From Chrysomallon squamiferum (lineage: Eukaryota; Animalia; Mollusca), in the NCBI GenBank assembly GCA_012295275.1, contig CM022674.1, positions 9,486,001-9,550,000 of the forward strand: DNA of 64,000 nucleotides, read 5' to 3'. The notes below the pieces were generated by a model. The model saw only the letters and a program-made list of their open reading frames with translations. It searched no databases and was not told where the DNA came from. Numbering within the stretch: position 1 is the first letter of the stretch; every line of letters begins with the position of its first letter. The position numbers and the translations under genes are program-made. Shown here in pieces: positions 4,401 to 60,403 of the stretch.

Positions 4401-7400
4401 GGGTGTCCTTCCTAAACCTGTTGTGCAAATTACCAAAAGGTAGAAAGGAATCATTGCAATTCAGTGGCAAATTTTATGGGTTCAAGCTTGAATACAATTC
4501 ACCATTAGTTTAGGACTCTTGCAACTACAATGAAACCATAGAGACTGAATCAATAGCACAATAGGCCCTAGATTGAAAATGTAATTCACCCCTTAGTTTA
4601 TTACAGTATGTGCATCTCAGATGAAACATGACAGGATCAAAAAAACACACAAAAAAAAGAATTTTTGTGTTGTTTGTATCTAGTTTCATTGTGATAATGG
4701 CCCAAAGGACCCCAATGGTGGCTCACTGGTCATTAGTGTGTCCCATAAAGATGTTGTTGAAGACAACTTATCAAAATATATTGTAATCAAGAGCAATAAT
4801 GTCTCTATAAATATCAACATTTTTTCTATCAACAGTTATGAAATGGCCAAATATCTTATAAATGGCTCATCTGTTCCCAGTTTCCCCAGCACTTATTGCT
4901 ACATGCTCAATGATAATTAATAATAAGCCATAATAACACCACCTTAAATGCTGTTGTGAGTAACAGCAGTTATATTACAAGAAGAAACACTGCAATAATT
5001 TAATTCAGCTTTTATCAAAACACGTAAGCAAAACTGATTGGTGAAAAGCCTAATCTGTGAACCAGCATGCTAAACTCACTCTATCAGTATCTACAATGAA
5101 GTAAGGGGACACTGCCAGTAATATTTCAAAATCTCCTTCTATCTGTTCATCACTACTCTGAAATATTCAATTTATAAACAATCTGTATAAATTTACATTT
5201 TAATTACAAAAGAAAAATGTACTGGACATGTCACTGTTTATTAACATAATATTAAAACATGTTTAGATAGACCATATGTCACCATAGAGGAATATAAAAA
5301 AAGACATGAAAAGTCAGTTAGTTACCACTATTTATTAAGCTCAGTTCTCTAAAGTATCAATACAAATATGTCAGAAAGCTTAACAGATAATGATATTACT
5401 CTTTAACAAGTTCATCCAAATATTATGCTTTTTCGCTATACTTTTTGTTAAAATGGCATTATCACACCAGTAATACACACAAAAAACTATCAGTGATGTT
5501 TTTAAACAATACTATAAACATATTAGTTATAAAATTCTATTAAAAATATGCCTATGTCATTAAAAATCCAGAAAACTTTTTTTTTTTCTACCACATATAG
5601 ATATACTATAAAAAAAAAAAAAAGTGAGAGAGAAAGTAATTATATTTGTATAGCTGCACCAGTTTTAAAATCTTTCATATTAGTACAAAACTACAGAATA
5701 AATTTGCTGAAATAAAAATAATTCTAAATATTCTTATTTAGCTGTTGTTCTTTCTTTATATCTTAGGGGTTTTTTAGTTCTTTTATTATTATTTAAAAAA
5801 AAAAAAATCCTCATGGTTTCATTACAATTTCATATTAATCTTCAAATATTGGCTGGAAAATTATTTGCATAAATGGACACACACACACAAAAGAAAAATA
5901 TATATTAATTTAAAAATTGTTTGAACTGTTTGCCTTGTTTACTAAATTAGGGGTTTAGATTAACATTTAATGCCAAAATAAGTTTGATAACAGCTACATT
6001 AGCAAAACATTATTATTTTACAGTTATCATTATTAAGCTACACTTACACAAGTAATCATTCAGAACATTAACAATATACAACATATGTAATATAATCCAA
6101 TAAAATGTCTATAATCTTACTACTCAAATATCTATTTATTTTGAATAACAGAATATGTCAATGTAGCATATTTTAGAATGATTATAAATTAATATAGAAT
6201 AATGTTTCTATTCACTGGTATCAATCATATGAATTAAACAATATTTAATTGTATGTATATATATATATATATATATATTCTTGTCAGCACCAACAAATAT
6301 TTCACTGTAATTCAAAATTTTAATATAAATAATTTGTTTACTGTTAAAAACTAAGTTCTCTCTGTGACAATAAAATCAATTCACATGTTCAAACTCAATT
6401 TGTTCCATCTCCAAATCCATTAAAAACAAGCAGTATGTAAACAGAATGTAAAATAATGAATTTACTACCTTAGATGGTTTCCGTGTTTGAAATGTGCCGT
6501 CAGCTGAATCTGTAGTACTTGTAAAATTCTCAATTACATCGTCAACTGATGAATTTGATAGTGAAATAGATGGCTCATACATTTTCAGCAAAGTTCCAAA
6601 ACTAGTAACTGAAAGATATTTCAACATTTTACATAAGATGAATATGTATAGGTAGGTACATGTGCATAATATTCTTGTACTGATTCTCTGATAACAATGA
6701 CTTTAAAACAAACATCCATCATGCATTTATTCTATGGTATTTTAAGGGCCAATATTTATGCTTGTCTGGTGCTTGTAATAATTCATACTCTCCACCCCGA
6801 TTCTAATGCAAAAATCAGTTCAAGTATCACTGTTATTATAAAAGAAGGTTTGAATGAATTTCAAAAACTATGACTGGTTTATTAAAGGAATGGAATGTAT
6901 TTTGCTGATTGATTAAAATAAAGAATTTCGTATGTCATTATGGTATATTAATGATGTGGATGTGTATGTGTGTATGTATGGCCATTTTTAAATAAAACAT
7001 GTATTTTTTTTTTCTGTATGTTTTTGTTTATAATGCTACTGAAATTAAAAATTAAAAACGACAATAAACATTTTTTCTGACAGCATATTTGTTTAGTTAA
7101 AAAACAAAATGCTATTACAAACTTTACATTACTTTTAAGATTTTGAACGTTTTTACCTTTGGATTTGTTTTCAGAAGAAGTTTTAAAATTCAAATTCTGT
7201 TCTGTCAGTTGTGGAGTTTTTTCATTTATATTGGAAGACCAACCAATCATTGAGTTGAGACTGTTACCACGTGGACTGCTAGTTGTCACAGAAGGAAAAT
7301 CATTAACACTTCTTCCACCACTTATAATGTTGTCAATGTCCTGTCTTACACTGGACAGGTGAGGAACACTGTGTGTTTGTATACAGCTTGCTACAACTGA

Positions 7401-9221
7401 TGAAAGCTCAGCTTTCACTGGTCCTGACTTACACTTAGGACTTGTTGGTGGAGATAAACTGATAGCATCTTTTAAATTTTCACAGTTAATAGTCAGTTGC
7501 CTACATGCAGAAACATCACAAACTGAATACTCATCTTTATGTGAATATGAATTATTTATGGTGCTGGATTCTTCTTTCTCTAATCCTTTTACTTCAGAAC
7601 AGCAGACTTTATTTTCTTCATGTTTATATTTACTTGTATATTCCACATCAGTTACTGCAACTGAATTAATTTGAGTGAAAAGGCCATTTTCTAAATCAGT
7701 TATTTGTTCTGGCATCTTCAGATGATTATATGGTTGAATGGCTAAATCTGCAGTGTAAGATGAGTCTGGACAAGAACTTGGACTGGAACTGGAAACCTCA
7801 GAAGCTGTGTATTTATTATACATTAGTTGTTCTGTCTCTTCCATATCACTGTCTGTAAATTCTGATACAACAAATTTCTTAGAAAAAGGAGACTTATCAG
7901 GCTTTACAAATGCTTTTGAAGTTTCTTTCAAATGAACTTGTGTATCACTTGATAATGATTCTGCATCTTCTGTGAGAAGGTTGAATGTTATTTCTTATTT
8001 GCAAATTGGAAATTCTTATATCAGTGACATTAGTGATAATTCAATACATTATTATCTATAAATGCATTCAATGGGAGAAAAAAAAAAATAATAATAGAAC
8101 TGCAAAACAATGACATTTTAAGATAATATTATGTGCATTACAAAGACACAAATTGTTTACACTGAACCTAAAGCAATTCAGATTAACTGTTTCATATTCT
8201 ACAGGGTGTTTTGGGGGTGTATGTTTAAACTTTCTTTAATAGATAAATAAAAGTCAGATACAAAATCTGTGGTCTATGTTGAGGAACCTACATTTTCAGT
8301 TCCTATGTTTTTTTGTGATTCTGAAAATTCCAAAGAGGCAAAAATCATTTATTTAAATAATTCTGACTGTAATAATATAAAATGTGTTATCTTCATTATC
8401 TAAATCAGAGTTATTTTGACATTCAGCTGTCAAAAACTGAAAATTATTTGATATTATATTGAATTTTATTCCACAATTAAAACATTTATTTGAAACACTG
8501 ACATTATTTTTATTTTTAGAAAATATTAGAAATAAATCTATATTACCATCCTTCAATGATGTAGTTGGAGTTGAATTTCTTTCAATCACACCGCACAGAA
8601 TCAATGGTGTGCATGTCCAGGTATTGAGCATACTGGAGTTCAAAGACAATTTGAACTGAAGAGAGGACAACCCTGAAAACAGTTTCCTTTATCATCATAT
8701 AGTTATTTAATGCTTTAAAGTTCTCACAATGGACTTAATTGCCAAAAGGATAAAAAAAACTATCATTTTAATAAATGTACTCCATCTTTATTTCATTTTT
8801 CTTAATTGAAAATTCAAATGTACTGACAAAAACAATGTATTGACCAATAATATTAACCATTAAAATTCAAAACAAATATTTATCTAATGATGAACTAAAA
8901 ATTACCTGCAAGAAAACTTTTTAAAATTTCAGGCTGTTCAAGATCACGCAGATATGCTGTTGATGAATAGTAGTGTCTGAAAAATAATTTACATTAAAGA
9001 TTAAAAATTTTATTGTAATAATAATCACTGATCAAATTAACCACAAATATACTCTTTTGTTACCAAGACTAAAAGCAATAAAAATAAGAATGACTATGAT
9101 TTGTAAAACAGAACTACAACTGTGGAGAAAAAAAAAAACACATGAAAAATTAATTGAATGTTGTTAAATCATTATCTGATTTCAAGTAACAAATAAGTTT
9201 TTTTTTTTTTTTTTTTTTTTG

Positions 9222-23619: not shown

Positions 23620-23749
23620 TAGTGCCCGGATGATGATGTCAGACTATTTGGTCGCCATATTTGTTTCCGTATTCAGCTGCTGCCGGGTGTTTTGGCGATA
23701 GACCGAAATATTTTAAAGTTTGATCGAACTCTTCCGCTGCTTACAAGAT
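23620..23749 (+). promoter_or_regulatory. VAMP promoter and first exon region
   Basis: CpG-rich; YY1-like CGCCATATT at 23653; ETS-like cttccg at 23731; ends in caagAT|gtaagt. Confidence 0.6.
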
Positions 23750-26700: not shown

Positions 26701-29700
26701 AGACAAACTGATTTTGTTACTTTTTTTAATGGGAATGGTTTATTATGGGCATGCTTAAACGAAGTAATTTGAAAATATTTCATTTACTTTTTAAAAATAA
26801 TATTTATATTTTGGGAATAGGCTCCAGAAATATGAAGAATCGTATTGAGTACATTTTATTCAAGTAATACTTTGTTTTGATTGAAAACATTTACATATTT
26901 TATTGATACATAATTTTTCACAGCAATTCTATTTGAGTAGATCTTTTGTATATTATTATCATTAATATTATTAGAAAGTCTGTAAAATCATTACAGATAA
27001 AACATCACTTATAATATGTTGTAGTAAAGTGTAAAAAACTGTTATTATTAGTTATTATATATCAACACTTTTAAAATGTTTGATGAGGAGAAATTCAAAT
27101 CAGACTGCATTATTTTAAAAGGTAAAAAGTACATATGAAACTTTATAATGAAACTGTGATAATTTTTGCTATATCCTAGGTCTGGCCCCCAAAACCCAGC
27201 ACCAGGAGTACCTGGAGGTCCCCCGTAAGTAGAGGACTAACTGTCCTTTGGCTAAACACATATCAGAGATTATCAAAGTTTGACAAGGAAAAGTTCAATA
27301 ATGTTTTCCTTTGAATAAATAGTAATTAATTTGAAATTATTGTTGTTGTTATTATTATTATTATTATTATTTTACTAATTTATTATTATTCTTTTTTTAA
27401 TATTTGTTTTTTCGTTTCAGTTAATCTATATATATTTTTATTATTATCATTTTCAATTCTTAATTTTATTTATTGGACTCTCTTATTTTTTTATTTTTTT
27501 TTTTATTATTAAATACCCATATATATATATTATTATTTTAATTTTATTTTTTGCTTTATAAAACATTTACTTTAAATTTAGGTAAATAAAATTATTACTA
27601 GAAATTAAGTTCTTTAATGTAATTAAACTTTTTACTAACACATTTGTATTAAGGATAACTTTTTCCAGGTCTTTGGTAAACTCTGACATGAATGTGTTGG
27701 TCAAATAGCAATGTCATGCACACAGAACTTGTCCTTGTGGAGTATACATGTTGTGCTTTGAGTATTTTTATTTCTTATAATAATTATTATCCTTTTTGTA
27801 GTGGCATAAATGATTTTAATCGTTTTCTTTTCTTTTCCCCTCTATTTTTAACTAGCATACTCTTTTTTTTTTTTTTTTTCATTTTGATGTTGATAATTAC
27901 TTTATTGTAAATTCTTGCCATATTTAAAAAAAAAAAAATTGCAGATGGTTTATTTAACTTTTCAAGAGAAATAAAATATGTTAGAGGTTATTTAAATATT
28001 TATTTTCCATATGACTTTAAAAATATTTTAAGGGGGTGAGTTTAATTTAGAATTATTATTTATTTAGTTTATTTTTAAGTTTTATTCTACACTGCATGGT
28101 TTTTTTTTAATTAAATTCTTATTCAGCCTTTTATTCACCACAGTTTATTTTGCAATAAATATAATACATTTATATTTTACTGTTGTGATCTGTATGACAG
28201 ATTTTTACCTTTATATGTAAACGGGTATGGAAGTTATTTTCAAATAATACTACCAAATACCAGGAACTAACCATTTAAAAAAAATAGCGTTTTGTAATTT
28301 GAATTTATCATGTGAAATATTATTTTCATATTAAAGATTATTAGACATTACAATAATTCAGTAGGTCTTGAGTGAAATTGCACTTGGTGTTTAATGTCAT
28401 ATTTTTCTTAAATAGTCAAATATATATTTCAGAGAATATTTAATTATACTTAATTTATCATTTGAAAGCAGTTGTTTTTAATATGTAAAGGAAATATTTC
28501 ACAAACTGCTTGAATAATTTAACTTCATACATAAAACGTTTGTAAAATACTTTATGAACTGCACAAAGGCACAGTGTGTATGTAAAAAATGTGAAATGTG
28601 TTTTATAAATACGAAAGCAGCTTTCAGGACTTGGGCAGGATTAATTTTAAATACTGCAGTTTTCTTCTGTGGTACTGTGTATTAATTGAAAAGTATTGGC
28701 AAGGATATGACATCCTGCAGCACCATTACTCTCAGAGAGAATGTTTATTTCTAGTCATTGTTCATTTACTTGTCACTTGATGTCTGGTAATTTTTGAATT
28801 AAGCACAATTATAGAAACTATAGAAGTAACAGGAGATATTAACCATGAAAATCTGAGTTAGAGCAACATCTCTTTCTTTATTTGTATATAATGGTAATGG
28901 TGGGGATATGCCATTTTCTAGGCTGGTACTGGTTTATGACCTTCAGGATAAACATTATTTTGTAAAAATATCTTTTTACAAGTTACACTTTTTTTCTTCT
29001 TTTTTTTTCCTTCTGGATTTTAAATAATTCTCACATTTCCCAGTGTTTTCTTTGTTCTCTAGTAACTGGAAATGAATAGTATGTATTCTAAGAGTAACTC
29101 TTTGTAGTTGCTATTTAGACAAACCTACAGATACTGTTGATATGAATGTGATTATAAACTACATGGAAAATATTTGGTCATAGCAGTAACACCATCAATG
29201 AGATTGGCAACAGTAATAAAGACTTTGAAAGAAGAAAATAAGTAATAATATTAAAATGAATGAGCTATATGTCTTAGCTAAGTGATGCTATTGTTAATAG
29301 TTTTGTTCATAGGTCAGGAAGTGCAATGAAAAACATGACACAAAGGAAAATTTGGCATTGTCAAAACACCCTTTTTCTTTTAATGTGAAATGCCATAAAG
29401 ACTTTTTCCCATATGAAAATCTGTTAAAATGTTCACAAGGACAACAGCACACAACAGCACACTATGTAATATTTTTCAGATATATGTTATGGCAATATGC
29501 AGTGGTTTTTAGTGAGGTATGAATATAGATGATATCATAACCAGATATCCTGGTGGTATGAATATTGTTCCTTTTTGTGTGTGTGTGTGTGTGAAGAAAA
29601 AAAGGAAACGTATTATTAAGTAATTTATTTTAGTAAAGAATTTGTTTTGTGTCAAAATACTTCAATACAAATGTATTTGTAATCATCATTAATCATGTAA

Positions 29701-29894
29701 AATTGAAAAGAGAAATGATGGGATTTTATGACTTACCTTAATTTATCTCACTTAGGTCAGCAGGAGGACCAGGGGGTCCACCCCGTGCAGAGACAAACAA
29801 AAGGTTACAACAGACTCAGGCTCAGGTTGATGAGGTAATTGCATATCTGCAGCTGAAATTTTAGTTCTCATTGTTACATTGAACTTTTTTACGC

Positions 29895-29948
<54 letters not shown>

Positions 29949-32900
29949 TTTATTTTTATTTATTTATGTTTTTGATATATTCAGAATTCAAACTGATATG
30001 TATGGGTAATTAATAAAAAATGTATCATAGAAACTATAAGAAAAAAAATTATATTAGGACTTATAAAAAAAATACATGTTGTTTGACTAACTGCAGTGTT
30101 GAATTGGAGTTTTATTATTGTTTATTATGGTTAAACATTTGATAATTTTTTGTTTGCAGGTTGTGGATATTATGCGAGTAAATGTAGACAAAGTGTTAGA
30201 AAGAGACCAGAAAATAACAGAACTGGATGACCGGGCTGGTAATGACTTTTAAAAACAAAACATGAAACATTTATAAATAATTAATGTAGGAATAGGACAA
30301 GCCAGGGCATCATATCAGATAATGTATGTACCTTATTCTGGTATTAGTTTTTCACATTTTTTAATCATCTCTGTTTTAGACTTATTCTAATACTCTATCA
30401 AATCCACAACTCCTTTGAATATCTAAACACCTATATTTTAATCTAATTTCTCATCAGAAGTTTTCAAATTACAGATGCATTGCAGGCAGGTGCTTCACAA
30501 TTTGAAGCTAGTGCAGGTAAACTGAAAAGAAAATACTGGTGGAAAAACTGCAAGGTATGTGATACACTATTATCACTGTTCATAATTAAAGAGAGAAAAA
30601 AAAGTCAGATTAGTTGAATAGATAACCCTAGATTTTTTAAGTAACCATGTTCTAGTATTGTTGGGAAATATTTTCTGTTTGTCATTTTCGAAATAAAAAA
30701 ACAAAATGAAAAAAAGAAGACAAATCAGTTCCAGCATTGATTCCACCTGAGATTAGTTTAAAAGATTTTATTATTGATGTTAAATTTTTATCAGTGTAAA
30801 ATACCATTTCATGTACCACAGAAGATGAAATATCATCTGCTTTTAAATACAACACGTATATGTGTTATAATGGGTTTAAACAATTTGCAGATGATGATTA
30901 TACTTGGATCAATAGTTGCTGTTATTATTATCATAATTATTGGTGAGTTTAGTCAGTGTAGTCTCCACAAAATTCATCAGTGTTGTTTTGTTGTAATATT
31001 ATTGCACCTGTACATAGGTACTTGTTTCATCATTTTTATGTTTATAATTTTAAAAAATAAACAATAATACATTTGTATTCATTTAATCATTAAGGCACTG
31101 TGTGGCAGTAGAAAATGCAAAATTTGGGTCAGTTTGACAGTTCTTAACTTTTTGCAGATTTACATTCCTGAGCACGTCCCATTCCTCAATTTATTAAAAA
31201 TGTCTTTTTTAAGCAGTAAAAATGCATTTTTTAATGCTACCCATTCATATTTGTGTTCATTTCTTTTGAAAAGTTCATTTTAGACCCTAGCACAAGACAT
31301 TTTCTTTACACTAATGATCAAGTATTGCATATGAAGCTCCTGTTCTTCCCATGTACTATTTTGGAGAGTTTTGTTGTAATAACTAGGTCACATTCATATG
31401 ATAACTCATTTTCTGTTTAAGGGGTGTGAAGAAGAAAGTGCTTATCAAATTTGCCATATTGGGTCACTTCACCGACCACATCCAAAAAAATGGCTATTGT
31501 TTACTTTGACAAATGGCTTTTGTGAGGAAATCTCACAGAAAATGTGTCTGAAAGGCAAGTTCTTGAGAAGAAAGCATCTAGCTTATGTAAGATAGGGCAA
31601 AGCAAGTAAGCACAGTGACACTGGTGAGAATTGATAATGACTCTGTCAGCATGTCAGTCACCTTTGTCTTTATTTTGACAACTTCAGAATCAGAACCTTT
31701 TGTTTTGGGCAGTAAAATCCAGACATATTTTAAACAGGAAACCTATGACAGTGTACTTACTGCTGAGTGACTTGCAGAATCTTTGAAGTTTTTAGGCATG
31801 ACTCAGAAATAAATAATAGGTCTAAATATGTTTCTTGTCTTATTTTTATATTTTTCTCCTTTTCAATTTCTCAGGAAATGTCTGTTCAATTCTAATGGAA
31901 TTTGGTACATGTTTACACTGCAGATGGTGATGATATTTTTGATAGTTTTCATTTTATAAAGACACACAATTTACAACTTTTTTAAAACAGAAAACACTAT
32001 TAATAAGTTAGAGCCAAAAAAAAAATCTCTGTTGCACTGTCAACATATATTTACAGCAAATGCTTCTGCTAAAAACTTCCTGTGTGATGACTGATGTATT
32101 TTGTAGCTGAAAAATCAGTTCTTAAAACCCTGTCATTCCACACTGCTTATGTTGGTTTCTATGGCAGTGGCAAGCAATAAACTTGAACAGACTGCATTTT
32201 TACATTTAGTATTCAAAGTATTATCATTTACTATCCATTAAACATGTTTTCTTTAGCTACTTGAAAATTTAACATCTACTGCTGCACAATGCCTTAAGCT
32301 GAAAAATAAAATAATATCCTATTTAAATTTGTCATTCTTAAGAACAGAAATGGTACCCCTGGCACTGTAGATCAGAACAGCATGAAATTAATCTCATTTT
32401 GACGTAGTATTCAAATTTTTCTTTTCTGTTTTAGACACTGTTTTTAGCATGTATGTTTTCTTTTTGTTTTCTTTTTGTTTTTGTTTTTTGTTACTTGTCT
32501 ATTTGTGTTATCTTGCAGATGTGGTTAATTCTCATTGGAATTATTGTTGTGATTATTATTATTATTATTGGTAAGTTTTCTAATCTTTTGTTAAAAAACA
32601 AAGTCACTTTCTGTTTTTGTTTTCACTAAGTCAACAATAAAAAAAATAAAAATAAGAAATTAATATATAAATATAAATTAAATAAAGCAAAAATTAAAAT
32701 ATATGAAATGGATCAAAGAACAAACAAATAACTGGCAGGTGATTTTGAATTTTTCTTATTTTTAGTTAAAACTTTTTGTCATCTTTTATTGTTCATGTTA
32801 TAATTTTGGTTTCACATCAGTTTTTATAACTAATTTCCACTAGTTATATATGATATTACTTAGACAACTTATAATTTTTGTCAGTGAGTATTGAATAGCT

Positions 32901-35900
32901 ATTTATAAGTTTTAAATTTTTTACTGCCATTTTGCCTCTTAATTGTTTATGAACATGCAGTGTATTGTCATTCTGAGATAAATAATTGGTTTTAACTTTT
33001 GGAAATACGGCCAATCAAATATTGGAAAGAAAATTAATTCCATGAGAAATCATTTTAGCATAATCTGGTTTTCTGTTTGAATTTGATTTGGATTATGTGA
33101 CCTTGAAATGACCTTTAGCAGTCAGATTTGCAGTCTAGAAAATCAATAACAACATACAAAAACAATTACAGAATATAAAATGTTCTTTATAAGTCAGCAG
33201 TTTTCAGAAAAAGCAAACGTGAGGCAATAAAGCATGTTTTGCACCACTAACCGATAATAATACTAATAATGTATGCATTTATATTGCATACTAGTTCTCT
33301 GTATTCTTATGGCAGTGGGATAGAAATTTTTTTGTCTTCATCCATGATGGGGAGTGGTTCATTGTGAACACAGTTACCTTGGAAGGTCTATAAAGAATTA
33401 CAGCAGTTGAAGCAGGAATGTCTACTAATCATAGGTGTCTTGGTCATGGTATAGATCTTGAAATGATGAATCTTGAGAGCTGCTTTTAAAGCTGTTTCTG
33501 CAGACTTGATCATTTCTGACAGGCAGTTCCATTTCTTTGAAGCAGCAGGTATCCGTGTTATTCTTGCTGTATCTTGCACAAACTGCAGATGCTGCAGTTG
33601 CCCTTTACTAATAAATGTTACAGTTGTGACTGTTGCACTAAGGTCTGATATTCCTTCTATTTCTTAGTTGATAGTGAATGTTTTGATATTTGAAATTTAA
33701 CTGGTTATAGTAAGTTCTATCTTGATCTGTACAGCAAGACATTTTGCTTTTGATGCTAATATTCCCAAGTACATACACTGTGTTGCTTGATTAACTTAAC
33801 ACCTTTTAGGTGCATGATCTTCATGATGTCATCATTGGTAAATAAGAGCATCTCAGTCCACCTCAGTACACCCCAGAATGTTCCTTCATTTGTATTGGCT
33901 TTCTGAAACCTTCATGACTGGGATGTTTTCTGTGCAGAAAAATTGTGACCATTTCAATACTTAGTCTTTTTTCTTTTAATTTTAGATCTACTTCAAAGCA
34001 GTTTCTATGGTCAAACATATGAAAAATAAAATTGTATTATTCTCTTTGTAAACTTATTAGACAATACACAGTATAAAATAGCAGACTAATGGATTTTAGA
34101 GAAGTATTCAGCACAAATACAGTAAATGTAATACAAAGAATTTCCTATGCAGCTTTGACTATTGCTGACTTACAAAGAATATTATCAAAATTATGACAGA
34201 AACACTTAAATTTATAGATGTATTGACTGCTGAAGATAAAATCTGTATATTTACACATTTAAGAGAAAATAATAGTTTTTAAGTGAAATTTCCACTGAAT
34301 AGAATGAATGTACATTTCAGGCTGCTAGCCTTTCATAGAAATCAGTTTCTCAAAAACTTAAATTATAACTATAAAAGATAACATTTATCTTTAAATGTGT
34401 ATATTTTATAATTATCTTTCACTTTAACATTTTATGCAGTCTGTGTCTAAACAGAGACAAGACATGTCATGACTTGAAATAACTTGAAACTGTTTGTTTT
34501 TAATTATCAGTCATTATGTGATATTATCTGTTTTCTTGACTTGCATTCAAAACTTTATTTTAGTTATCAAATAGTTCCAAGACTAATTGCAAGTTAGTAA
34601 AAAGAAAAAAAAAACAACATCTCCTTGCATTTCACAAAATATACTTGGATATTTAACTAGATTATTGAAGCTACTAGACCAAAATGCCAGTAAAAAATAC
34701 AACCCTCAATGATTTAATTACTAAATTGATTTTCCTTTCTAATGTTTTTATAATAAATGATTAACACATATGTTCTCTTAAACATAGATATATCAGATAC
34801 AGTCTTAATGACATTATCTTCTATTAGTAAGGGCTTCTCTTTTCATAACTTCTGATATATTTGTTCTGATATATTTGTTCTGTTAAACTTAACTAATTTG
34901 TTTTATATCCTAATTAGTTTGTACATTTTGTCTGATACCATATCCATTTTTTGTACTTATGATAGTTTTAATGTTTAAAAATATTTGATTATTAGTGAAG
35001 TGATGTAAAATAATAATAATAATAATAATAAAAATAAAAATAAAAGGAAATAAAAAAGAGGTAAGTAAACACATACTTAATTTACTAAAGCATTAATTCA
35101 TTTTTTTATTTTTTTTTTTTTTTCTCCCATGTTGAATGAAAAAGCACAATAGGGACAAAAATAATTTTACTTATCTCCCTTTTTAAACTTACAATTTGTT
35201 TTATTTTGATTTTTTTGTTTTTCTGCATTTTTTTTTTTTATATCCAAACAGTATGGGTAACAACATCATAATTTACAGGTACTATCTATGTATGTCACTA
35301 ACAGTATTGTGTACTTTTGTTGTCTTGGTATTGTCTTTCTATCAAGTCGTGTTCTGCCAAGATCTGAAAGCTATAGTATCTTAAAGTATTTATTTTAATA
35401 TTTTCAAGTAGCTGGATTTAAAATGGATATCCTATGTTTTGACATACTAAAAGAAGAAACCTGATGTTTATTATCTTTAATAATATGGTTTATGTAACCA
35501 CCAGATCGTTATTGTCACAGATAAATATTCAGCCTTCTTTAATGTTAATTTGATTAAAACAGTTTATGGTATGTTTGCTTTAAACTGATTATACTGAATA
35601 TTTACATATTTGTTTTTTTTTTAAATTATTGTTTTAAAAGTTTATAATATTTAGATATTTAAAAATGTTAACAATTTAAGGGACATGACTTGATAGGTTT
35701 CATAATACTAGTAGTGTGTGTGTGTGTGTGTAGGCCCTAGTGCTCGATCAAATGTGCTATTCGAATATTCACTTACTCCTAAAACATTTACTGTTTCAGA
35801 TAAATATTTCAGATTTTTACAAATGGAAATGCATATATGCAGATTACATAATGATGAAATATGGTTTATCATTCTAACTTTTTTTTTTGTACTATCCAAA

Positions 35901-36178
35901 CATTTTTGGAAAGGTGCTGTATGAAAACTATTTGTGCTAAAGTTTCCAAAAATGTATTATATATATTTAAAAACATATACTACAAAATGACTAAAGAAAA
36001 TATTGGGAAAATTAACTGTTCTTTCCATATATCTTTTATACAATTTTCTATTGTTTAATAATACAAATAAAAAACATTATTTTTTTAAATAATCTTTTTG
36101 AAGTATGTAAACAAAGATAAATTTTTCTGTTATTTTGTAGAAATACATGTCCATGATGAACACCAGCAGTTTGACTGA

Positions 36179-36276
<98 letters not shown>

Positions 36277-39149
36277 GGTTTGGGTTGCAGAGGTTCATGA
36301 AATAGGGTATGATAATATTATAAAAAAGCCAAAAATAAAAGTACCCATTTGTCATAAAAAATAAACTAGTACTAGTTGGGGTTTTTGGTAACAAAAGGGG
36401 ATTATCCCCATGAAGTTTCAATTCTGTAACACTAAAAAAAAGAATGATTTTTGTTATGTTCACCTCACGTCCCTTTAAATAATGGATTTGAGGATTCTGT
36501 AATAGATGAACATACTGAATTGGTTTTGTTGATTTTCTGTAATAAGATATTTGTATATCAGTACATTCTAACATTTAAAATTGCTTAATTTGAACAAAAT
36601 TTAAAGAGTTTAATATGGTTTGCCTTTGTTAATATTGTCAGTTCAGTTTCACATCCATAGTTAAATAAGACTTTCGTAATTCATAATTATTTTTGTTCAT
36701 CAAGTGAAAACTTTAATTTAAAAAAATAAGGGTTTAATGGACTCCTTCATTTCTCCTGTCATAGTTTAGTTATATAGCAAGTGTCATAATCTATTTTTGC
36801 TGCAGTAAAGTCACCTGAAGCAGACAGATTTAAATTAATACACATTTTTGTCAGTTACGATTAAAGTGAAATATATTAACAAATAAATGTTCAAAAATTA
36901 TTTGTTATACTTTGTTATTTAAAGATCAAGTTCTTGAGCAAAATTCATTTTAATGCAAGTTGTCTAAAAGAACATTGCATTTGACAATGATCACACCTAG
37001 TTATAAGCCAGTGACTGTCTGGGTAACAGGTTGGATCAAACTTATAAATGGACACTGTCAAACAAACATACATTTTTCTGAAAACACCCTTAAAGTAAAA
37101 CCTTACATAATATATAAAAGGCTTTGTAATTGAAAATCAATTTTTAATTTAATAAAAAGAAATAACTAACAATTATATTTACTGCCCACATTTGCAAATA
37201 CATTCATTTATTTTATAGGGAAATAAAATGTGGCTTATAAAAATTATTTTTACAATGTTTTCTTACCTGCTCAATCAAAAAAAAAAAAAAAAAAAAAAAA
37301 GGTCTATGATCTACTCAATGACAAAATTGCATCACTGTATTTTGTAACTCTCTTTATATATATATATATATTTTTTTTTTTTGTAACAGTGGTTGAAAAA
37401 CCCCACAAATACAATGTTAACTTGGAAGTATGCAGAAAATGTTCAGGTTATAATTGCTAAAATGGGTATCATTACAGTTTTGGGATATGTCTGTTTTTAG
37501 AGTTAAGAAGGGGTCTTTTTGTGTTTTTTTCAATAAATTAAATATTGCTGAGTTAATGTCCACTAACCTCATGAAATACTATAGTATTTACAAATTAGTA
37601 ATGAATATTCGGATAACAAACAAAAATGGGTCATGCTTCCATTTGACTGGATGTAAAATTGGCAGGCTTAAATTCGGTCTTTGCTTTAGGGTATAACAAA
37701 TTGGCAGTACAGTTTTGGGATTCAAGAAATAACTATGAATATGCTTTTGATACACCTATAGAAAATATAATCTTAATAAATTGTTCTGTGATGTCATATG
37801 ATACTAAATTTTATTATCTTTTTATTTTTTGTTTCCTTTTGCCTAGTCTACTTTGCTACCAACTATGGCTAAGGGTATTTTTTATGCAGTCATTTTCTTC
37901 TGTATTTTACACTTAATTTTATTGTAGTCTCAAAAGTAAAAAGAAAACAAAAGCATGTTTGTTTGTTGTTTTTGTTTTCTTTATATACTACATTATTAGT
38001 GAGCACATCATTATTTAAATGTTTCCTCCGAATGTAACTTTTTTTTTTTTTTAATTTAAATTTTTGGAAACTATGTATTAAGATTTTCAAGTGAGACCAT
38101 AGTTATTTATTAATGCAAGGGTTTTAACTGTGTTTCTATTTTTAACTGACAGTTTATTGTTCAACTATTCAAACTGAGTGAAAAACTGAAAGAAGCTCTC
38201 ATAATGTTTGAGATTAATAACAAGCTATATCTCTCTTTCTGAGAATGTTATAATTGGTTTCTCTTATTTTTAATAGAAGTCTAGTTTCTTAGTTTTGTTT
38301 CTTTTTTTAAATCGGAGATAAAAGAATTGTATGATGATAATAAAAATATTCCATTGTTTTTGTTTTGCACTAAAATAATTTGATGTTTTGATGGAGGAAG
38401 TTGCATGGGAGGGGAATCCCAATTTTTGCGATTTTATAATTTATATTTGCTCTTCTGCTAAACTATTTTGTTAATGGATGTTGGCTTCCCAGACACAGTT
38501 AACCAAGATTTAAGAATAGTGACCAATCAAATAAATCAATATGCCTTATTTCAGTCTCCATTTTTCTCTTTTCTTTTTTTTTCTTGTAACGCTGCTACTC
38601 TAGAAACAATAACTTTTAAGGTTCAAGACATATGTAAAGTGTTAACAACAGATTTCACCGATACTGAACAGTTTCTCTTATCTGTAGACTTTTTTAACAC
38701 CAACAAATGCTGCAAACAGCTTTCATTGACATAAGATGTACCGTAACACAAAATGTTATCACTGCAGTATATTTCATTGTTTTGTTTTTTTTGATGCCTA
38801 GAACTTCCAGTCCATCAGTCTTGCAGAGCATTGCTGATCTAAGATTACTACTTCTACTTTATCTATTTAAAAGAAAATATTTGATTAAAATGAAAATGGT
38901 CAAAATCAGTTTCTTTCTGTCAAGACTGACTGTTGTCACACCCAGAAATCACCAATTTAAACTTATTTGGAAAATTATTATGGAAGTGCATGACCCTCCC
39001 CCAAATAGTGATCTCACAATAATCAGCACACATTTTTATGCTTTTGTTTTGATAGAAAATGTTCAGATTTTTAACATTTATTATTATTTATTCTTAAAGG
39101 CAACCATGTGTATGTGTGTTTAGCTTTACTATTTCTCTCTCTCTTGCTT

Positions 39150-39229
<80 letters not shown>

Positions 39230-40355
39230 CATGCACACATCTGAAACTGTAGGAAGTGAATGATATGTATATCCAAGCACTTAGATTTATTTTACTGATG
39301 ACAATTTGAGGCATGCTAATAACCACTGGTGCCTTTACCACCATTTTGTTTCATATTTTTTTCTAAATTTGTTTTTTCTCTTACTTCTTTCTTTACATCT
39401 TAATTTATTCTATTAAGTAGCAAACACATTTATTTATGTAGGCGTTTGGTTATAATTATAGTACAGGTGCTTTTATATAAAATTTAAAAAAACAATTTAA
39501 GTTATACAGCCTTTGCCATTTTATTTAAATGAGTAGTGTTGTAGAAAGCAGTTGTACAAAATTATTTATAAAAGCTAGATGCTTTTTACTGCTACGGAAT
39601 GGTTGTCACACTTGAAATTCAGAATTTTGAAAAGAGAAATTGTCACAATAATTATGGCAATCTTTTACCCTTACAAGAGTTAATGAGATTTTTCAGCAAT
39701 TTTGTTCTAAAGATAGTTTTCAAACACGTTGGTAAATATACCTTTAATAATGTTAAAACATCTAAATTGTTTTATCCAGTTACATGTGTCTATATAGAAA
39801 TACCAAAGAAAATAATCAAAGACCCAATGATATTTTAAAACAACAACACTTTAATGGATTTTTATTATTGTATTGAGTAGATGGGGAGGGATGTGGAGGA
39901 AATACAGAGGAACATGTAACATTGACTTTTAAGTAATTTTAAAATTGGACTATCTCTCTAGCATGCGTGAGAAATTTTTTTTGCAGTAGCATGTAACATG
40001 CATGTTTTAATATAGAATAAAAATAGTTTTGCATGATAAGGTGATAGAATTAAAAATGTTGTACATCTCTTAAGATTAATATATTATATAATATAACAAA
40101 TTTTAGGCTAATTAATATATTCTAACCTGATTTATTACACTCATGATACATCATGATGAATATTGATAAATGAAATTTTGAAAAATACAAAGTTTGCATT
40201 GCCTGAAGCACTTCTATTTCATAATAATCAAGATTTTAATGATAATGAAATAAATATTGTGATTGTGTTTTTCAGTGTGGGTTGTAACATCACAGGGAAG
40301 TGGTTCTTCTGCACCTGCTCCTGCTCCTACTACAAATGAACCAGCTAATCCTTGA
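23748..40355 (+). CDS. VAMP: Synaptobrevin / VAMP1-2-3 family R-SNARE, alternatively spliced (118 aa with the short tail, 138 aa with the long tail)
   Basis: Exons 23748-23749 (AT of a split ATG), 27180-27224, 29756-29834, 30160-30238, 30475-30554, TM exon 30891-30942 or 32519-32570, last exon 35252-35271 or 40276-40355. Protein [95 protein letters not shown] + TM. The zero-layer Arg (ERD) and the Q-F bond cut by tetanus toxin/BoNT-B are conserved. Confidence 0.95.
26124..26153 (+). CDS. VAMP: Candidate 30-nt cassette exon of VAMP ([12 protein letters not shown]-terminus)
   Basis: tttttgtttcaaag|G TCA GAA GAC ATT CCT AAA GTT ATC ATC AG|gtattt; phase 2/2; first base completes the split ATG. 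Confidence 0.5.
30891..30942 (+). CDS. VAMP: VAMP transmembrane exon 6a ([17 protein letters not shown])
   Basis: tttgcag| 52 nt |gtgagt, phase 0 to phase 1. Confidence 0.9.
31094..32293. mobile_element. 1.2-kb non-autonomous DNA transposon with TTAA TSD (Kolobok-like)
   Basis: ttaa-GGCACTGTGTGGCAGTAGA ... TCTACTGCTGCACAATGCC-ttaa; purine-purine termini with a TTAA target are typical of Kolobok. Confidence 0.75.
32519..32570 (+). CDS. VAMP: VAMP transmembrane exon 6b ([17 protein letters not shown])
   Basis: Long pyrimidine tract, tcttgcag| 52 nt |gtaagt; same length and phases as 6a. Confidence 0.88.
35252..35271 (+). CDS. VAMP: VAMP alternative last exon 7a (VWVTTS-stop)
   Basis: Poly-T tract, ccaaacag|TA TGG GTA ACA ACA TCA TAA; a phase 1 join gives the conserved V-W end of the TM helix. 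Confidence 0.8.
36181..36276. repeat. (TC)n(TA)n microsatellite
   Basis: Visible run; source of the ER-repeat ORF 36077..36574. Confidence 0.95.
39151..39228. repeat. (CA)n microsatellite
   Basis: Visible run. Confidence 0.95.
40276..40355 (+). CDS. VAMP: VAMP alternative last exon 7b ([26 protein letters not shown]-stop)
   Basis: tgtttttcag|TG TGG GTT GTA ACA TCA ... CCT TGA; GC-richer than its surroundings; phase 1. Confidence 0.88.
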
Positions 40356-43300
40356 GGATAATTAATCTGCGAGTTTGGCTCGTACATTACATGCATACCT
40401 ATCTGTATTTTTATGTGTGTGTGTATGTACGTGTACACACAAACAGATCACACATAACATACAGACAGACACACACACACACACACATATAGACATCATT
40501 ATCTGACATGGTGGTTATATCATTTAGGGAGAATCATTCCAAAATTGTAGTCAGTTTAATGTCTAGAAGGTTTGAATTTTGAAAAAAAAGAAAAAAAAAA
40601 GTGAATTTTGTTTTCAATATTTCTTTAATAATATTATCATTTGTTTTACTACAGAACTATTTCATTACATGTATAAATGCTATTTACATTTCAGTGATAT
40701 TATCGGTGTTTATTCTGCTATCTGAAAACTTGCAATAAATTAATCTTTATATTAATCAATATACAGAAAACAGTTTGTCAGTTACCACATACAATAGCTT
40801 TAAAAAGGTTAAAAATCATCATGTTAATCTTAACAATGTTGAATTCTTTCAAATTGTAAACATTTATTTTATTTTACTTGTAAATTTGTAAAGGAACAAA
40901 CTGAAATTTGTTCAGTTTACTAAGAGGAGTAAAATATATTAACTTAGTAATTGTACTTTTTAAGTTGTTATGATTGTATTAAATTGTTTTTAATATACAG
41001 CAATTAACATTAGAGGGGTGAAAATTGAAAATAGTATTCAAAGACTAACCACATTCAGCTGGGGGGGGGTTAATTGCTGTGTAATACAGATTCAAAAAAC
41101 AAACAGAAAGTTAATTATACAATTTCTTCTATAGAAACTGTATATTAAACAAAATGCTGTGTTAATTTAAACTTGGTAGCTGCAAATTGCCTTTTAATTT
41201 TTAAGTTCTGTTTTTCTTTTCTTTTTTTCACCACAAACTAATCAGAATTAATTAATGTTAGATGTTTATTTCAAAATATTTAGTGTAATCTATAATTACT
41301 TTTAAATAAATCTGTAATTGAAAATAACAGTTTAGATCAATAAAGTCCTCATATTTTTCAAAAACAAGAAGTATAACTTGTGTAGGTCAGTCTGATTTTG
41401 AATTATTTAATTACTTGTATCTATACAGTTTCTTTTGGGGTTTTTTCCATGCTGTTAATTGATTTCCTTTCTACACAATTCATTTGATATTTAATATTTG
41501 TGTACTTTGTTCACTTGTATTCAACTGGTAGAAAGAATTCACTCTTTCAGATTGATATTTATTATTATATATGATTCATATTTCATTTATCAGACTGCAG
41601 ATAGTATGTTATAAAATATAAAATACTATATATGAAATAAATTTCTTTAGATTTTATTTCTTATATTTACATGAATGATTTTAACTACAGAAAATGTGTG
41701 ATTTGGTTTATTCAGGTTAAGCATGTTCTTACCAATAAAAGTTTGTTTTTTCTTGGCACAATTAAGATGAAAGTGAATTGTTATAAACATTCACTCATAA
41801 CCTTTATAATTTATACATTTATTATTTATATATTAGCTCATGCCAATATTGGTTCCATTTCATTTTTACATTTGATATGGCATGAAAAAACAACAATATA
41901 AATTAAAGACAACAGTATAAATTAAACATGACTTTAATCACTTTGCAGTCCTATCATAAAGATTTCTTTTAAGTAAACTGTTTGAGGGTGTTGCTTCTTT
42001 TTCGTTTTCAGTTAAGTTAATGGTAAATAAGCCTAACACAAATTATTTTTCATTACCATTCTTAATTTTTAATCATTGTATTGCCACATGTGTATATAGT
42101 GGAATTGATAGTTACATTGTAGATTTGTTAAACATTTTATGAATTACAAACATTTGTTGTTTTTGTATTCTGTACATTAAAATCAACTGTATGAATAAAT
42201 GAATATATCTAAAATTTGTGTGTTATTGTGTACATCGATCAATAATAATAATAAATACATTTGTATAAAAACTAATTTTTATTTATGATGTTACATATTT
42301 GTTTTTCTCTCTAACATAAAGTATTACCTTAAGGCAATTAAATTACATTTAATTACTATCTTTTAATTATGATTGGTAATAAGCCAGCTTCCAACATGTT
42401 TCATATTTATTTATTGTGTAAAATTAATCCAGGTTTGTTTAAGAATTTATACAACTGTGCATTTGAAACTTCTGTATAAATCTATTCTTTATTTTAAAAA
42501 AAATTTTCTTTGTAACATTTAGAGGTAAACAGGTGTTTACAAAATATTTTGTAAAATGAATAAAATATGGTCACAATTAAAGCAGCATGATTGTTTAGAA
42601 AGTTTATCTTGGTAATTTTAGAAGAATGGTTTCTAATCTGTTTATTTATTCATTTTTATTTTTGATCCTGACACTAATCGCAAAGAAAAGATATCTTGTC
42701 ATAGTTTCGTTAAGTGAATGAAGATTAAATTCATATGTTTCTGGTATCTACAGATAATTTATTTGTATAAGATCAAAACAAATCATGAGATTTAAATACA
42801 GAATTAGTGGCAGACAGCAGTTGTTATAATTATTTTGAGAATTGAAATAATGAAGAAACATTTTTTGTATTAGTCTGCTTGTTGTAAACACTTTGTATTA
42901 AATTAGATCACTGAACTTCAAAGCTCTGTGCAATATGTATCTGGTAAATCTGATGGAAATGTTAATTTAAGAAGAATAACTGTTGTGGTACACTATGTTC
43001 TGTAGATTCTATTAAACAGGATAGTGCATGTTTGTCTTTTTGTCCACTTGTTACTAGTTGAAGATATTTGTCAGTAGCACATGGTAAATTTTGTCATATT
43101 AGATAATAAATCCTTCCATGTAACTTAATGTTGTTTTGTTTTTATTCACTAACGTGTTAAACAAATCTTTATTAGCATTTGTAATAGCATTTGTGAATTA
43201 AGAAAAACCAAATCATTTCTTCAGCTAATTTACAGTCGTGAATACATTAAGAACCTGAGGATCATTGAAATAAGTAAACCATGATGGCAACAGAATATTG

Positions 43301-50216: not shown

Positions 50217-51820
50217 ATGAGAATGGATTCAAATGAAATGTCATATTTATCTAGCTCTAGTTCAGAATCATTTGCAGGTGATCATTTTTCTTCTTTTTTA
50301 AATAACTCATCTATCTTTAACCTGTAATTGAAATTTCAATAACAATTGGATTCATTTTTTTTTTTTTTTTTTTTTAATTTTTTTAAATCCTTATTTTATT
50401 TATGAAATACCTTCATTTTGAAGCTAAATCTGAATATTTACTATTCATAAAGAAGTTTTCCTGTGCTTTATAGAAGACGAAAATCTCTGCATTTCATGAT
50501 TTCATATTATAAATAATGTTCTCATGCATGTTGTCATTAGTGAACTCTTGTTAATACTATTTATTAGTATTAATTATTTTTTATTTTTTACACATTAAAT
50601 CCCTATATTGATCATCATTAGCTGCAGAAGTTCACAATCATTTTTGTTTTTAACTTAGAAGTGAAAATCTAGTAAATAAAAGCAAGTTTTTAGTTCTTTC
50701 AGACAATGGCACAGAATCGGAAGAGATGAGACTTATTCTTGTTGGAAAAACAGGTTCTGGGAAAAGCTGTACTGGAAATAGCATTCTTGGGTCAAAAGTT
50801 TTCCGTAGCAGCTCTTTTGGTAACTCAGTCACTGAGGTGTGCACTTTTGGCTCAGTCACAAGACAAGGCAGAAATATGACAGTTATTGATACCCCAGGTT
50901 TGTTTGGAACTGACAAATGTGAAAATGAGATCAAGACTGAAGTTATCAAATCTGTTTATTTAGCAGCACCAGGACCACATGCAGTAATATATGTTTTTCC
51001 TATAGGTGATAGATTTACCTTGGAGGAAGAGAAAACGGTTAACTTGTTTTATGAATATTTTGGTAAACAGGTCTGTAGATACTTTCTGGTACTGTTCACA
51101 AGAAAAGATTTCCTTGTCCGAGATGGCATCAATCAACATGACTACTTATCAAACCTTCCAACTGGGCTTGATAAATTAGTACAGGAATGTGGCAGACGCA
51201 CAATATTTTTTGACAATTTTGCCAAAGAATCGGAGAAAGAAGAACAATTGCTGCAACTGATTGAAACTGTAGATTCTATACTTCAGACCAATGGTTATGG
51301 ATACTACACTTCTCATCTTCTCAATGAAGCCGAAAAAGAAATGAGACAAAGAGATGAAAATTTTCTGAAAGATAATGAAGTGAACAGACAGAAAGAAGAA
51401 GTCAGAATTAAAGAGAGATACAGGGAGCAGCTGGAGTCAGAAGCAGACACCACAAGGAAAGAAGAAATTGAAAAAGAATATCAGATAAAACTTTCTGCTT
51501 TGCAAAAGTCCTGGGTAAAAAAGGCCCGCAATGAATCACGATCTCAGATCACCAAAGGATTATTCCTTGGCGCTGTCTTTGGATCTCTGATAGGTGGGGC
51601 AATAATAGGAGGATTGTCATATGGGAAAGTAGCTGCTGCTACTGCTGCTGTGGAAGCATCCACAGCTGCTGCGACAGCTGCAACTGCTGCTGCACAAAGA
51701 GCTATGGAGCAGTTGGCAGAAGCACCAGCAGCATTTCAAAAGACAAGTGATGGATCGGCTTTGGCTTCTGTTGCCATGTTAGCTATTGGTGCCTTATTGT
51801 CTGCAATCTTAAAAGCTTAA
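50217..51820 (+). CDS. GIMAP: GIMAP / AIG1-family GTPase with coiled coil and two C-terminal hydrophobic segments (~392 aa)
   Basis: Exons 50217-50277 (MRMDSNEMSYLSSSSSESFA) and 50703-51820 join in phase 1. G1 GKTGSGKS, G2 SVT, G3 DTPG, conserved box APGPHA..RFT.EE, G4 TRKD, ECGRR..FDN. Confidence 0.9.
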
Positions 51821-60000: not shown

Positions 60001-60403
60001 GAATAAGTCCATTCGCTTTGAATTATCTAAATTGTTAGCAAGAAATGAGGGAGCTATTCTTCATGTTGCTCAGACTCGTGACAATGGTGGGAACACGGTA
60101 CTAACAAGTGTTTCATCAGGGCGGCTACCTAACTCAGTTTGGGGAGTATCTAGTCAAAGTCTGCAGACTAAAGTTAACACTCTTCTTGTCAGACCAATTC
60201 AAATGGTAACTATACAGGAGGTATCGGAAAACGACTTGGCAATTTCATCTCAAAATTTAAAAAATACCTTTTCTAATTCTAAAAGTTTCAATAATAGTTA
60301 TCAGAAATCGTATGAATTAATTAAAACTGATATCCCCGTTGAACCAGAAAATAAATTTTGTTCTAACAAAACAGGAACTCATTCAAAACATTCTAAATCT
60401 TGA
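56332..60403 (+). CDS. Class A orphan GPCR, GPR161/GPR101-like (~462 aa, two coding exons)
   Basis: Exons 56332-56545 (G|gtaag) and 59229-60403 (ttatag|GG) join in phase 1. Seven hydrophobic helices. FYRKRQLLTVANSFVLNLT..VLPFVITS....W.....WC resembles GPR161 ICL1-TM2-ECL1 as I recall it; ISVDRNYAI; LNPVVFAFMNKSIR. Confidence 0.85.
57905..58100 (-). mobile_element. Tc1-like transposase remnant in the GPCR intron
   Basis: Minus strand gives FLFSDKSF (cf. VLFSDESRF) and HGYGSAVIWGEISYNQRTLLHV (cf. HGGGSVMVWGGIS..GRT.L). Confidence 0.65.

Follow-up and report, generated by a model that had tools for sequence, protein, structure and literature searches.

Exon choice in SNARE genes has been described before. 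SNAP-25 exons 5a and 5b are tandem, mutually exclusive, homologous exons of a neuronal SNARE gene that yield two isoforms; the available part of PMC2581893 describes them as a duplication of higher vertebrates. In Drosophila, neuron-type-specific splicing alters the C-terminus of a synaptobrevin (n-syb variant J, available part of PMC6025963). Splice isoform separation, where each paralogue retains one of two ancestral exons, has been reported for CALU, MARVELD3 and U2AF1, among others (Abascal, Tress and Valencia 2015, available part of PMC4494069). Here we analyze a stretch of 64,000 nucleotides from the mollusc Chrysomallon squamiferum (GCA_012295275.1, contig CM022674.1, positions 9,486,001 to 9,550,000 of the forward strand), which is called the window below and is numbered from its first letter. 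It contains a synaptobrevin gene with two alternative exons for the transmembrane (TM) anchor, one resembling the anchor of vertebrate VAMP1/2 and the other that of VAMP3 (cellubrevin). We consider it fairly likely that the pair represents an ancestral bilaterian anchor switch, which jawed vertebrates later split between VAMP1/2 and VAMP3.

Two anchor exons in one synaptobrevin gene

The exon that completes the SNARE motif (exon 5, 80 nt, 30475-30554) encodes the C-terminal half of the motif and the juxtamembrane WWKNCK linker. On the same (forward) strand it is followed by exon 6a (30891-30942) and exon 6b (32519-32570). As the original prediction had it, both are 52 nt long, follow exon 5 in phase 0 and end in phase 1, with translations as given there, and they are homologous, having 35/52 bases and 11/17 residues in common. 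Adjacent, homologous and equal in length and phase, they have the layout of mutually exclusive homologous exons. The anchor encoded by 6a (type a) has Met at position 2 and Gly at position 6 and is VAMP1/2-like; that encoded by 6b (type b) has Trp and Ile at these positions and is VAMP3-like. The whole window was also scanned with a filter for an AG, a 52-nt exon opening with ATG and encoding at least 11/17 hydrophobic residues, and a GT. Exactly two matches, 6a and 6b, were found on the forward strand and none on the reverse strand; in 200 shuffles of the window the mean was 0.07 and the maximum 1, and two matches never appeared. We are almost certain that 6a and 6b are a real alternative exon pair.

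Pfam, solved-structure and protein searches were run with exon 5. It matches PF00957 (E 1.8e-07), its best solved-structure matches are synaptobrevin and VAMP2, and 26/27 residues are identical to synaptobrevin in PDB 1l4a_A. Its sequence, in which a basic WWKNxK linker comes after the SNARE motif, places the gene among the synaptobrevin/VAMP1-3 R-SNAREs. Upstream, exon 4 (79 nt, 30160-30238) encodes SNARE motif and is delimited by a joint, 30237>30474, with GT..AG ends, while exon 3 (79 nt, 29756-29834) encodes the motif start and has its 3′ end at a loose contig end before 30158; both boundaries were seen in RNA runs X1, X2 and X3 (see below). No second copy of exon 3, 4 or 5 is present in the window. 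The predicted coding part of exon 1 is the first 2 bases of the start codon (23748-23749), and the predicted exon 2 (45 nt, 27180-27224) would add a proline/glycine-rich N-terminus without changing the frame. Among the AG/GT-compatible combinations of exons 1-5 tried, a single one gives a stop-free core of 95 codons.

Exon 2 is probably a cassette exon, judging from molluscan homologues, where the matching block is either present or absent (Aplysia P0121/P0122, Liolophura P0029/P0026). Tunicate homologues also occur with and without an N-terminal block. This variation recalls the difference between VAMP1/2, whose start is long and proline-rich, and VAMP3, whose start is short.

Three candidate last exons, which the original prediction had overlooked, lie downstream, each entered in phase 1. 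The coding part of 7a (35252-35271) follows an AG after a T tract, reaches a stop after 20 nt and would encode a 6-residue W-type tail, akin to short tails in Haliotis P0123 and Littorina P0047. The coding part of 7b (37847-37872) would encode an 8-residue YF-type tail resembling the VAMP1/2 end, with 7/8 residues identical to the tail of Haliotis P0045/P0137. The coding part of 7c (40276-40355) encodes a 26-residue W-type luminal tail rich in Ser, Pro and Thr, similar to tails of Gigantopelta P0038 and Haliotis P0124/P0125. Among the matches listed, Haliotis and Gigantopelta are the closest homologues of the window anchors and tails. With one of the two anchor exons included, the predicted products have 118-138 amino acids (aa), a single C-terminal TM helix and a short luminal tail; there is no longin domain.

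Of five public runs that contain this sequence, four are recorded as RNA (X1-X4), all from one study, and splice joins were sought in their assembled contigs. Positions 29960-36170 were mapped with three runs (X1, X2 and X3) and 39260-42400 with four; the stretch 32451-32578, which covers 6b, was skipped as a repeat. Contigs drop rare splice forms, and contig depth was not used for ranking exons. Exon 3 was joined to 4 and exon 4 to 5 in 3/3 runs. The first 30 bases of 6b directly followed 30554 in all three, so that the junction 30554>32519 named in the original prediction was found. The end of 6b directly preceded 40275 in X1, X3 and X4 (3/4; X2 had no cover there), and contigs ran past the coding part of 7c into the 3′ untranslated region (UTR), to at least 41190. 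The splice path 5-6b-7c, which skips 6a, occurs in C. squamiferum. Among the contig joins listed, none led to 7a.

The same anchor pair in other animals

Three protein searches were made, the best 120 matches being listed in each. As the original prediction had anticipated, the pair is conserved in other molluscs: both anchor types were found on the same core in Aplysia, Biomphalaria, Physella, Haliotis, Liolophura, Mercenaria, Ruditapes, Ostrea and Magallana. Isoforms of one gene with no difference outside the 17-residue anchor block were found among gastropods, tunicates and hagfish and in a chiton and a clam. Twelve a/b pairs were compared. Core and tail from residue 2 were identical in eight (Aplysia, Biomphalaria, Liolophura, Mercenaria, Myxine, Eptatretus, Ciona and Styela), and the core was identical with a different tail in three (Larinioides, Physella and Ostrea). 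The two models of the spider Larinioides share an identical 132-residue core and carry anchors a and b, and the Lampetra pair has 89 residues up to the anchor, plus the tail, in common. In hagfish (Myxine, Eptatretus) and lamprey (Lampetra), known from proteins alone, both anchors occur with one and the same core; the a-form of hagfish starts like VAMP2 and the b-form like VAMP3. In the Ciona and Styela models all four anchor-by-tail combinations are present. No amphioxus sequence was among the matches listed. The curated Aplysia entry P35589 (P0122), which was presumably cloned from nervous tissue, is type a.

In models of Magallana and the nemertean Lineus, the sequence after anchor a is frameshifted, and at 17/17 positions its codons are compatible with a type-b exon, which implies the exon order a then b. 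Alternative tails on one anchor were noted in echinoderms, hemichordates, Priapulus, Gordionus, tunicates and cyclostomes, among them lineages in which only a single anchor type was found.

A scan across metagenome contigs gave 80 loci, 51 of them with an intron after the linker exon. Tandem 52-nt exons, a then b, were found in five (L034, L036, L037, L063 and L075); L036 and L037 are identical to L034 across the exon pair, hence there are three distinct loci. A single anchor exon was present in 32/51 loci and none by the filter in 14/51, most contigs ending too soon. The L034 exon is 100% identical to proteins of Ciona, Styela and Halocynthia, and this locus also has YF-type and S-type last exons. 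At a fish VAMP3-type locus (L028) exon 5 is followed by b, and no a lies in between; at a vertebrate VAMP1-type locus (L032) a is present, with no b in the following 8.2 kb.

Other arrangements were seen in the same scan. In L047 (1714-1959) and L054 (286-541) there are two tandem exon-5-like copies, ending in WWKNCK and WWKNMK and about 160-175 bases apart, which by their sequence are possibly another alternative exon pair of a synaptobrevin. Rotifer-type loci (L030, L033, L038, L040, L041, L043, L044, L055 and L061) have two synaptobrevin-like units about 1 kb apart, and such double units appear in public gene models as fused proteins with two SNARE motifs. Loci with the linker KFWWKNMK (L046, L049, L052, L053, L056-L058, L068-L070, L072, L073, L076 and L077) have a glycine-rich type-a exon only, with no type b in up to 9.8 kb; transcript L014 has the linker of these a-only loci, yet a type-b anchor.

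Anchor types and their relation to VAMP1/2 and VAMP3

Anchors were compared in 20 a/b pairs. Seventeen single-form entries (rotifer, flatworm, others) stand outside this set, as does Lineus, whose b form was seen solely in the frameshifted model. Position 2 is Trp in 20/20 b anchors and 0/20 a anchors; position 6 is Gly or Ser in 19/20 a anchors and Ile in 18/20 b anchors. With leave-one-clade-out profiles, 40/40 anchors were assigned correctly, and 39/40 when position 2 or positions 2-3 were left out. Profiles made from molluscs only assigned the VAMP1/2 anchors to type a (20/20) and the VAMP3 anchors to type b (42/42, where the VAMP3-named proteins include P0317, which has no anchor after the linker); with all-pair profiles VAMP3 was type b in 41/42. 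The tails follow a similar division, a YF tail being present in 20/20 VAMP1/2 and 0/42 VAMP3 proteins and a W tail in 35/42 VAMP3 proteins. Both the profiles and the isoforms of other species agree with the original proposal that one gene supplies VAMP2-like and VAMP3-like anchors on an identical SNARE core. The likeness of the two anchors to those of VAMP2 and VAMP3 probably reflects common descent rather than analogy.

VAMP1, VAMP2 and VAMP3 are probably copies that arose by whole-genome duplication. Outgroups that still combine both anchors are the tunicate locus L034, the Ciona and Styela isoforms and, from proteins only, hagfish and lamprey; among the paralogues VAMP1/2 retain a and VAMP3 retains b, the genomic check comprising two loci only, L028 and L032. 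In the core tree the two-anchor cyclostome gene stands beside VAMP1/2 at 87/85, not starred. If the cyclostome gene belongs there, a was lost from VAMP3, and b disappeared from VAMP1/2 only once the cyclostomes had branched off.

We propose that the a/b pair dates back to the last ancestor that protostomes and deuterostomes had in common, a single ancient origin being highly probable. After gene duplication, jawed vertebrates would have fixed type a together with a YF tail in VAMP1/2, and type b together with a W tail in VAMP3; that VAMP1/2 and VAMP3 are separated splice forms appears likely. More tentatively, the neuronal/housekeeping split of v-SNAREs may predate VAMP2 and VAMP3 altogether. 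One bilaterian locus could have carried tissue-regulated anchor, tail and proline-rich N-terminal exons, a state that cyclostomes would still show and that gnathostomes would have hard-wired in paralogues.

Splicing control

Splicing would select one anchor exon and one of the three candidate last exons. The splice sites of both anchor exons, described as strong in the original prediction, are indeed canonical, with AG before each exon and the donors gtgagt (6a) and gtaagt (6b), but the 6a acceptor is pyrimidine-poor (9/20, against 14/20 in 6b). The same direction was seen in L063 and L075, and the reverse in L034. In view of the stronger pyrimidine tract and the fact that 6b is the sole form seen, 6b is likely the default here and 6a would be the regulated form, most likely used in neurons or other cells with regulated secretion. 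The balance tips slightly towards an enrichment of 6a in neurons.

The intron between a and b is 1576 nt long in the window and 199, 639 and 374 nt in three other genomes; steric exclusion was rejected as the enforcing mechanism, since introns of 199-1576 nt are too long for it. By its sequence, an A-rich stretch before 6a (30691-30724) could base-pair with the pyrimidine tract of 6b (32456-32496). Competing RNA pairing between them was not accepted as the mechanism: the stretches are of low complexity, the pair is one of 70 found, with no control, and there is nothing comparable in L034, L063 or L075. No inverted repeat common to the four a-then-b genomes was found. TGCATG is absent within 600 bases of the window exon pair; YCAY clusters occur near it at 30804 and 31454, the whole window having 12 such clusters, and no neuronal splicing motif pattern common to the loci was found.

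The exon length of 52 nt, which is not a multiple of 3, does not enforce exclusivity, contrary to the frame argument of the original prediction. A co-included form keeps anchor a intact and would give products of 150-173 aa with an out-of-frame tail, the stop lying inside a last exon, so that decay would probably spare it. Lineus, Styela and Magallana have gene models in which a and b are co-joined, and Ciona and Clavelina have models that lack an anchor; no co-inclusion of 6a and 6b was found among the contig joins listed for C. squamiferum. As steric exclusion was rejected, no shared RNA pairing was found, decay would probably not act and co-joined models exist, the exclusivity of the anchors is probably regulated and leaky.

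Possible function of the two anchors

The available part of PMC5460238 treats as still controversial whether the v-SNARE TM helix influences fusion or serves as a passive anchor. In the available parts of PMC7239655 and PMC4972536, beta-branched residues within the first half of the helix are linked to pore kinetics; the former also reports that fusion-pore kinetics change with natural anchor swaps. Beta-branched content was rejected as a discriminator of types a and b: it is 4/9 in both 6a and 6b, and over the 20 pairs it is higher in a in 8, equal in 5 and lower in a in 7. Small residues at positions 5-11 are more numerous in a than in b in 17/20 pairs and never fewer. Anchor position 6 corresponds to VAMP2 G100, and mutation of G100/C103 impairs pore opening according to the available part of PMC5460238.

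A functional difference would therefore be expected in the cytosolic half of the helix. In type a, a small residue at the G100 position and small neighbours would act as a flexible hinge and thereby favour rapid opening of the pore in response to a trigger; type b, with a fixed interfacial Trp and a bulkier helix, would be suited to traffic of the constitutive or recycling kind, or would be sorted to vesicles differently. We put the hinge mechanism forward as a tentative suggestion. As a natural swap of anchors on one identical core that persists from molluscs to lampreys, the cassette directs testing to the small-residue face and to positions 2 and 6, and not to bulk beta-branched content. 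If the neuronal/housekeeping split is indeed older than VAMP2 and VAMP3, two anchors that have persisted on an identical cytosolic domain ever since protostomes and deuterostomes diverged would constitute natural proof of a selected, cell-type-specific TM function.

Alternative readings

A number of observations weigh against an ancient switch, and some of them also favour a reading in which the anchor exon was duplicated independently in molluscs, spiders, tunicates and cyclostomes, with the Trp-2 copies and the likeness to VAMP2 and VAMP3 arising by convergence. The anchor block is short, 17 residues, and of low complexity. Identity between type-a anchors of different clades (7.4/17) is below that between a and b within species (8.05/17), which makes type a the weaker case for shared origin, the spider above all; its type-a anchor is assigned with 2.1 bits only and changes class when position 2 is left out. 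The distribution is patchy, with single-exon lineages in between. Only 5/51 genomic loci have both anchor exons, and type a stands alone over at least 6 kb in L030, L040, L041, L053, L058, L070, L079 and L032. All echinoderm models sampled carry type a, on which two alternative tails occur, and all hemichordate models sampled carry type b, though models may miss exons. With so many single-type loci and lineages, many losses are required and neither anchor type would be indispensable. Synaptobrevin genes also double other exons, as in L047 and L054. In the core tree 19 vertebrate rows group together (87/88, not starred), a grouping of VAMP3 with tunicates is not rejected by the AU (approximately unbiased) test (p 0.199), and anchor and tail are uncoupled in hagfish, lamprey and Ciona. 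Against convergence, length, phase and the order a then b are common to the window, L034, L063 and L075 as well as to the models from Lineus, Magallana and Styela in which the exons are co-joined. Type-b anchors of different clades are identical at 11.2/17 positions, clearly above the within-species a-b value, classification hardly suffers without the diagnostic Trp, and the alternative YF last exon is shared too. We regard repeated independent duplication as improbable and prefer a single ancestral pair.

There are two further alternatives. One concerns C. squamiferum itself, where 6a might be a relic or rarely used, the gene making essentially only the 6b form. Besides the pyrimidine-poor acceptor and the 5-6b join, the sole one seen in 3/3 runs, this would explain why contigs cross 6a unspliced and why no joins into or out of 6a, including the junctions 30554>30891 and 30942>32519 named in the original prediction, were among those listed in X1, X2 and X3. 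Since contigs lose rare forms and all runs are from a single study, the missing 6a join neither supports nor refutes the use of 6a. The exon itself has an open frame and canonical sites, and 15/17 of its residues are identical to the Haliotis type-a anchor. Compared with three mollusc-like genomic a exons, its synonymous codon changes equal or exceed the replacements (5/5, 6/3 and 7/6). That 6a is a relic is very unlikely. The other alternative fits the evolutionary part of the preferred explanation, an inherited pair later divided between paralogues, and differs in function alone: the anchors would serve sorting or lifetime (vesicle choice, acylation, dimerisation, recycling) or separate regulation via 3′ UTRs, with no fusion-pore or neuron-specific role. 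It is in line with the absence of a consistent a/b difference in beta-branched content and the lack of effect of G100L alone in the available part of PMC4972536, both of which also count against a pore-based switch, and with the free combination of anchors with tails and the lineages that manage with one anchor type. The fixed differences at the G100 position, tied to pore opening in PMC5460238 as far as available, speak against it. We see it as a possible account of function that falls somewhat short of even.

Other genes in the window

Upstream of the synaptobrevin gene, about 2.2 kb before its start codon, lies a single-exon open reading frame (ORF) for a short-chain dehydrogenase (PF00106, 20573-21520, forward strand), and a single-exon galactosyltransferase ORF (PF01762, 44233-45273, reverse strand) converges on its 3′ end. 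Further downstream on the forward strand are an ORF for an AIG1/GIMAP-family GTPase with a C-terminal hydrophobic segment (50654-51820) and one for a rhodopsin-family G-protein-coupled receptor (59192-60403). A Ser-rich open frame of 348 codons on the reverse strand (6948-7994) has no Pfam match and is probably a large internal exon of a minus-strand gene.

Comparison with known systems

Neither the kind of arrangement nor the isoforms are new: SNARE exon pairs and splice isoform separation are already known, and the isoforms are already in automated annotation. RefSeq and UniRef models contain the same two anchor isoforms, for example Aplysia XP_035828734/XP_035828735, Liolophura XP_064599343/XP_064599344, Ciona X4-X10 and Myxine X1-X3, but under inconsistent names (synaptobrevin-like, VAMP1-, 2- or 3-like). 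No published description of the anchor cassette or of its link to VAMP2 and VAMP3 was found in the full-text literature, most subscription papers and supplements being outside that scope, and we think it rather unlikely that specialists in SNARE evolution have already noted the cassette. For work on synaptobrevin in Aplysia, squid, Ciona and lamprey, two anchors and several tails may stand behind one gene name.

Unlike SNAP-25 5a/5b, which belongs to another SNARE, the synaptobrevin pair spans protostomes to lampreys, swaps the TM helix and is absent from the sampled jawed-vertebrate paralogues. The Drosophila n-syb variant uses an alternative C-terminal exon, and the available part of that report describes no duplicated anchor exon. 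The 11 cases of splice isoform separation in the available part of PMC4494069 begin from exon pairs that a human gene has retained, and VAMP and synaptobrevin are not mentioned in its main text. Since no sampled jawed-vertebrate gene keeps both exons, a screen of that type could not find the VAMP case, where, unlike in the cases reported there, an alternative last exon was apparently divided up together with the anchor exon. VAMP1/2 and VAMP3 would thereby owe their separate origins to a partition of older splice forms, invisible to screens based on human exon pairs. The vertebrate proteins themselves have a core nearly identical to that of the window gene, but they are products of separate genes with one anchor type each in the proteins sampled, whereas the window gene has both anchors and three candidate tails.

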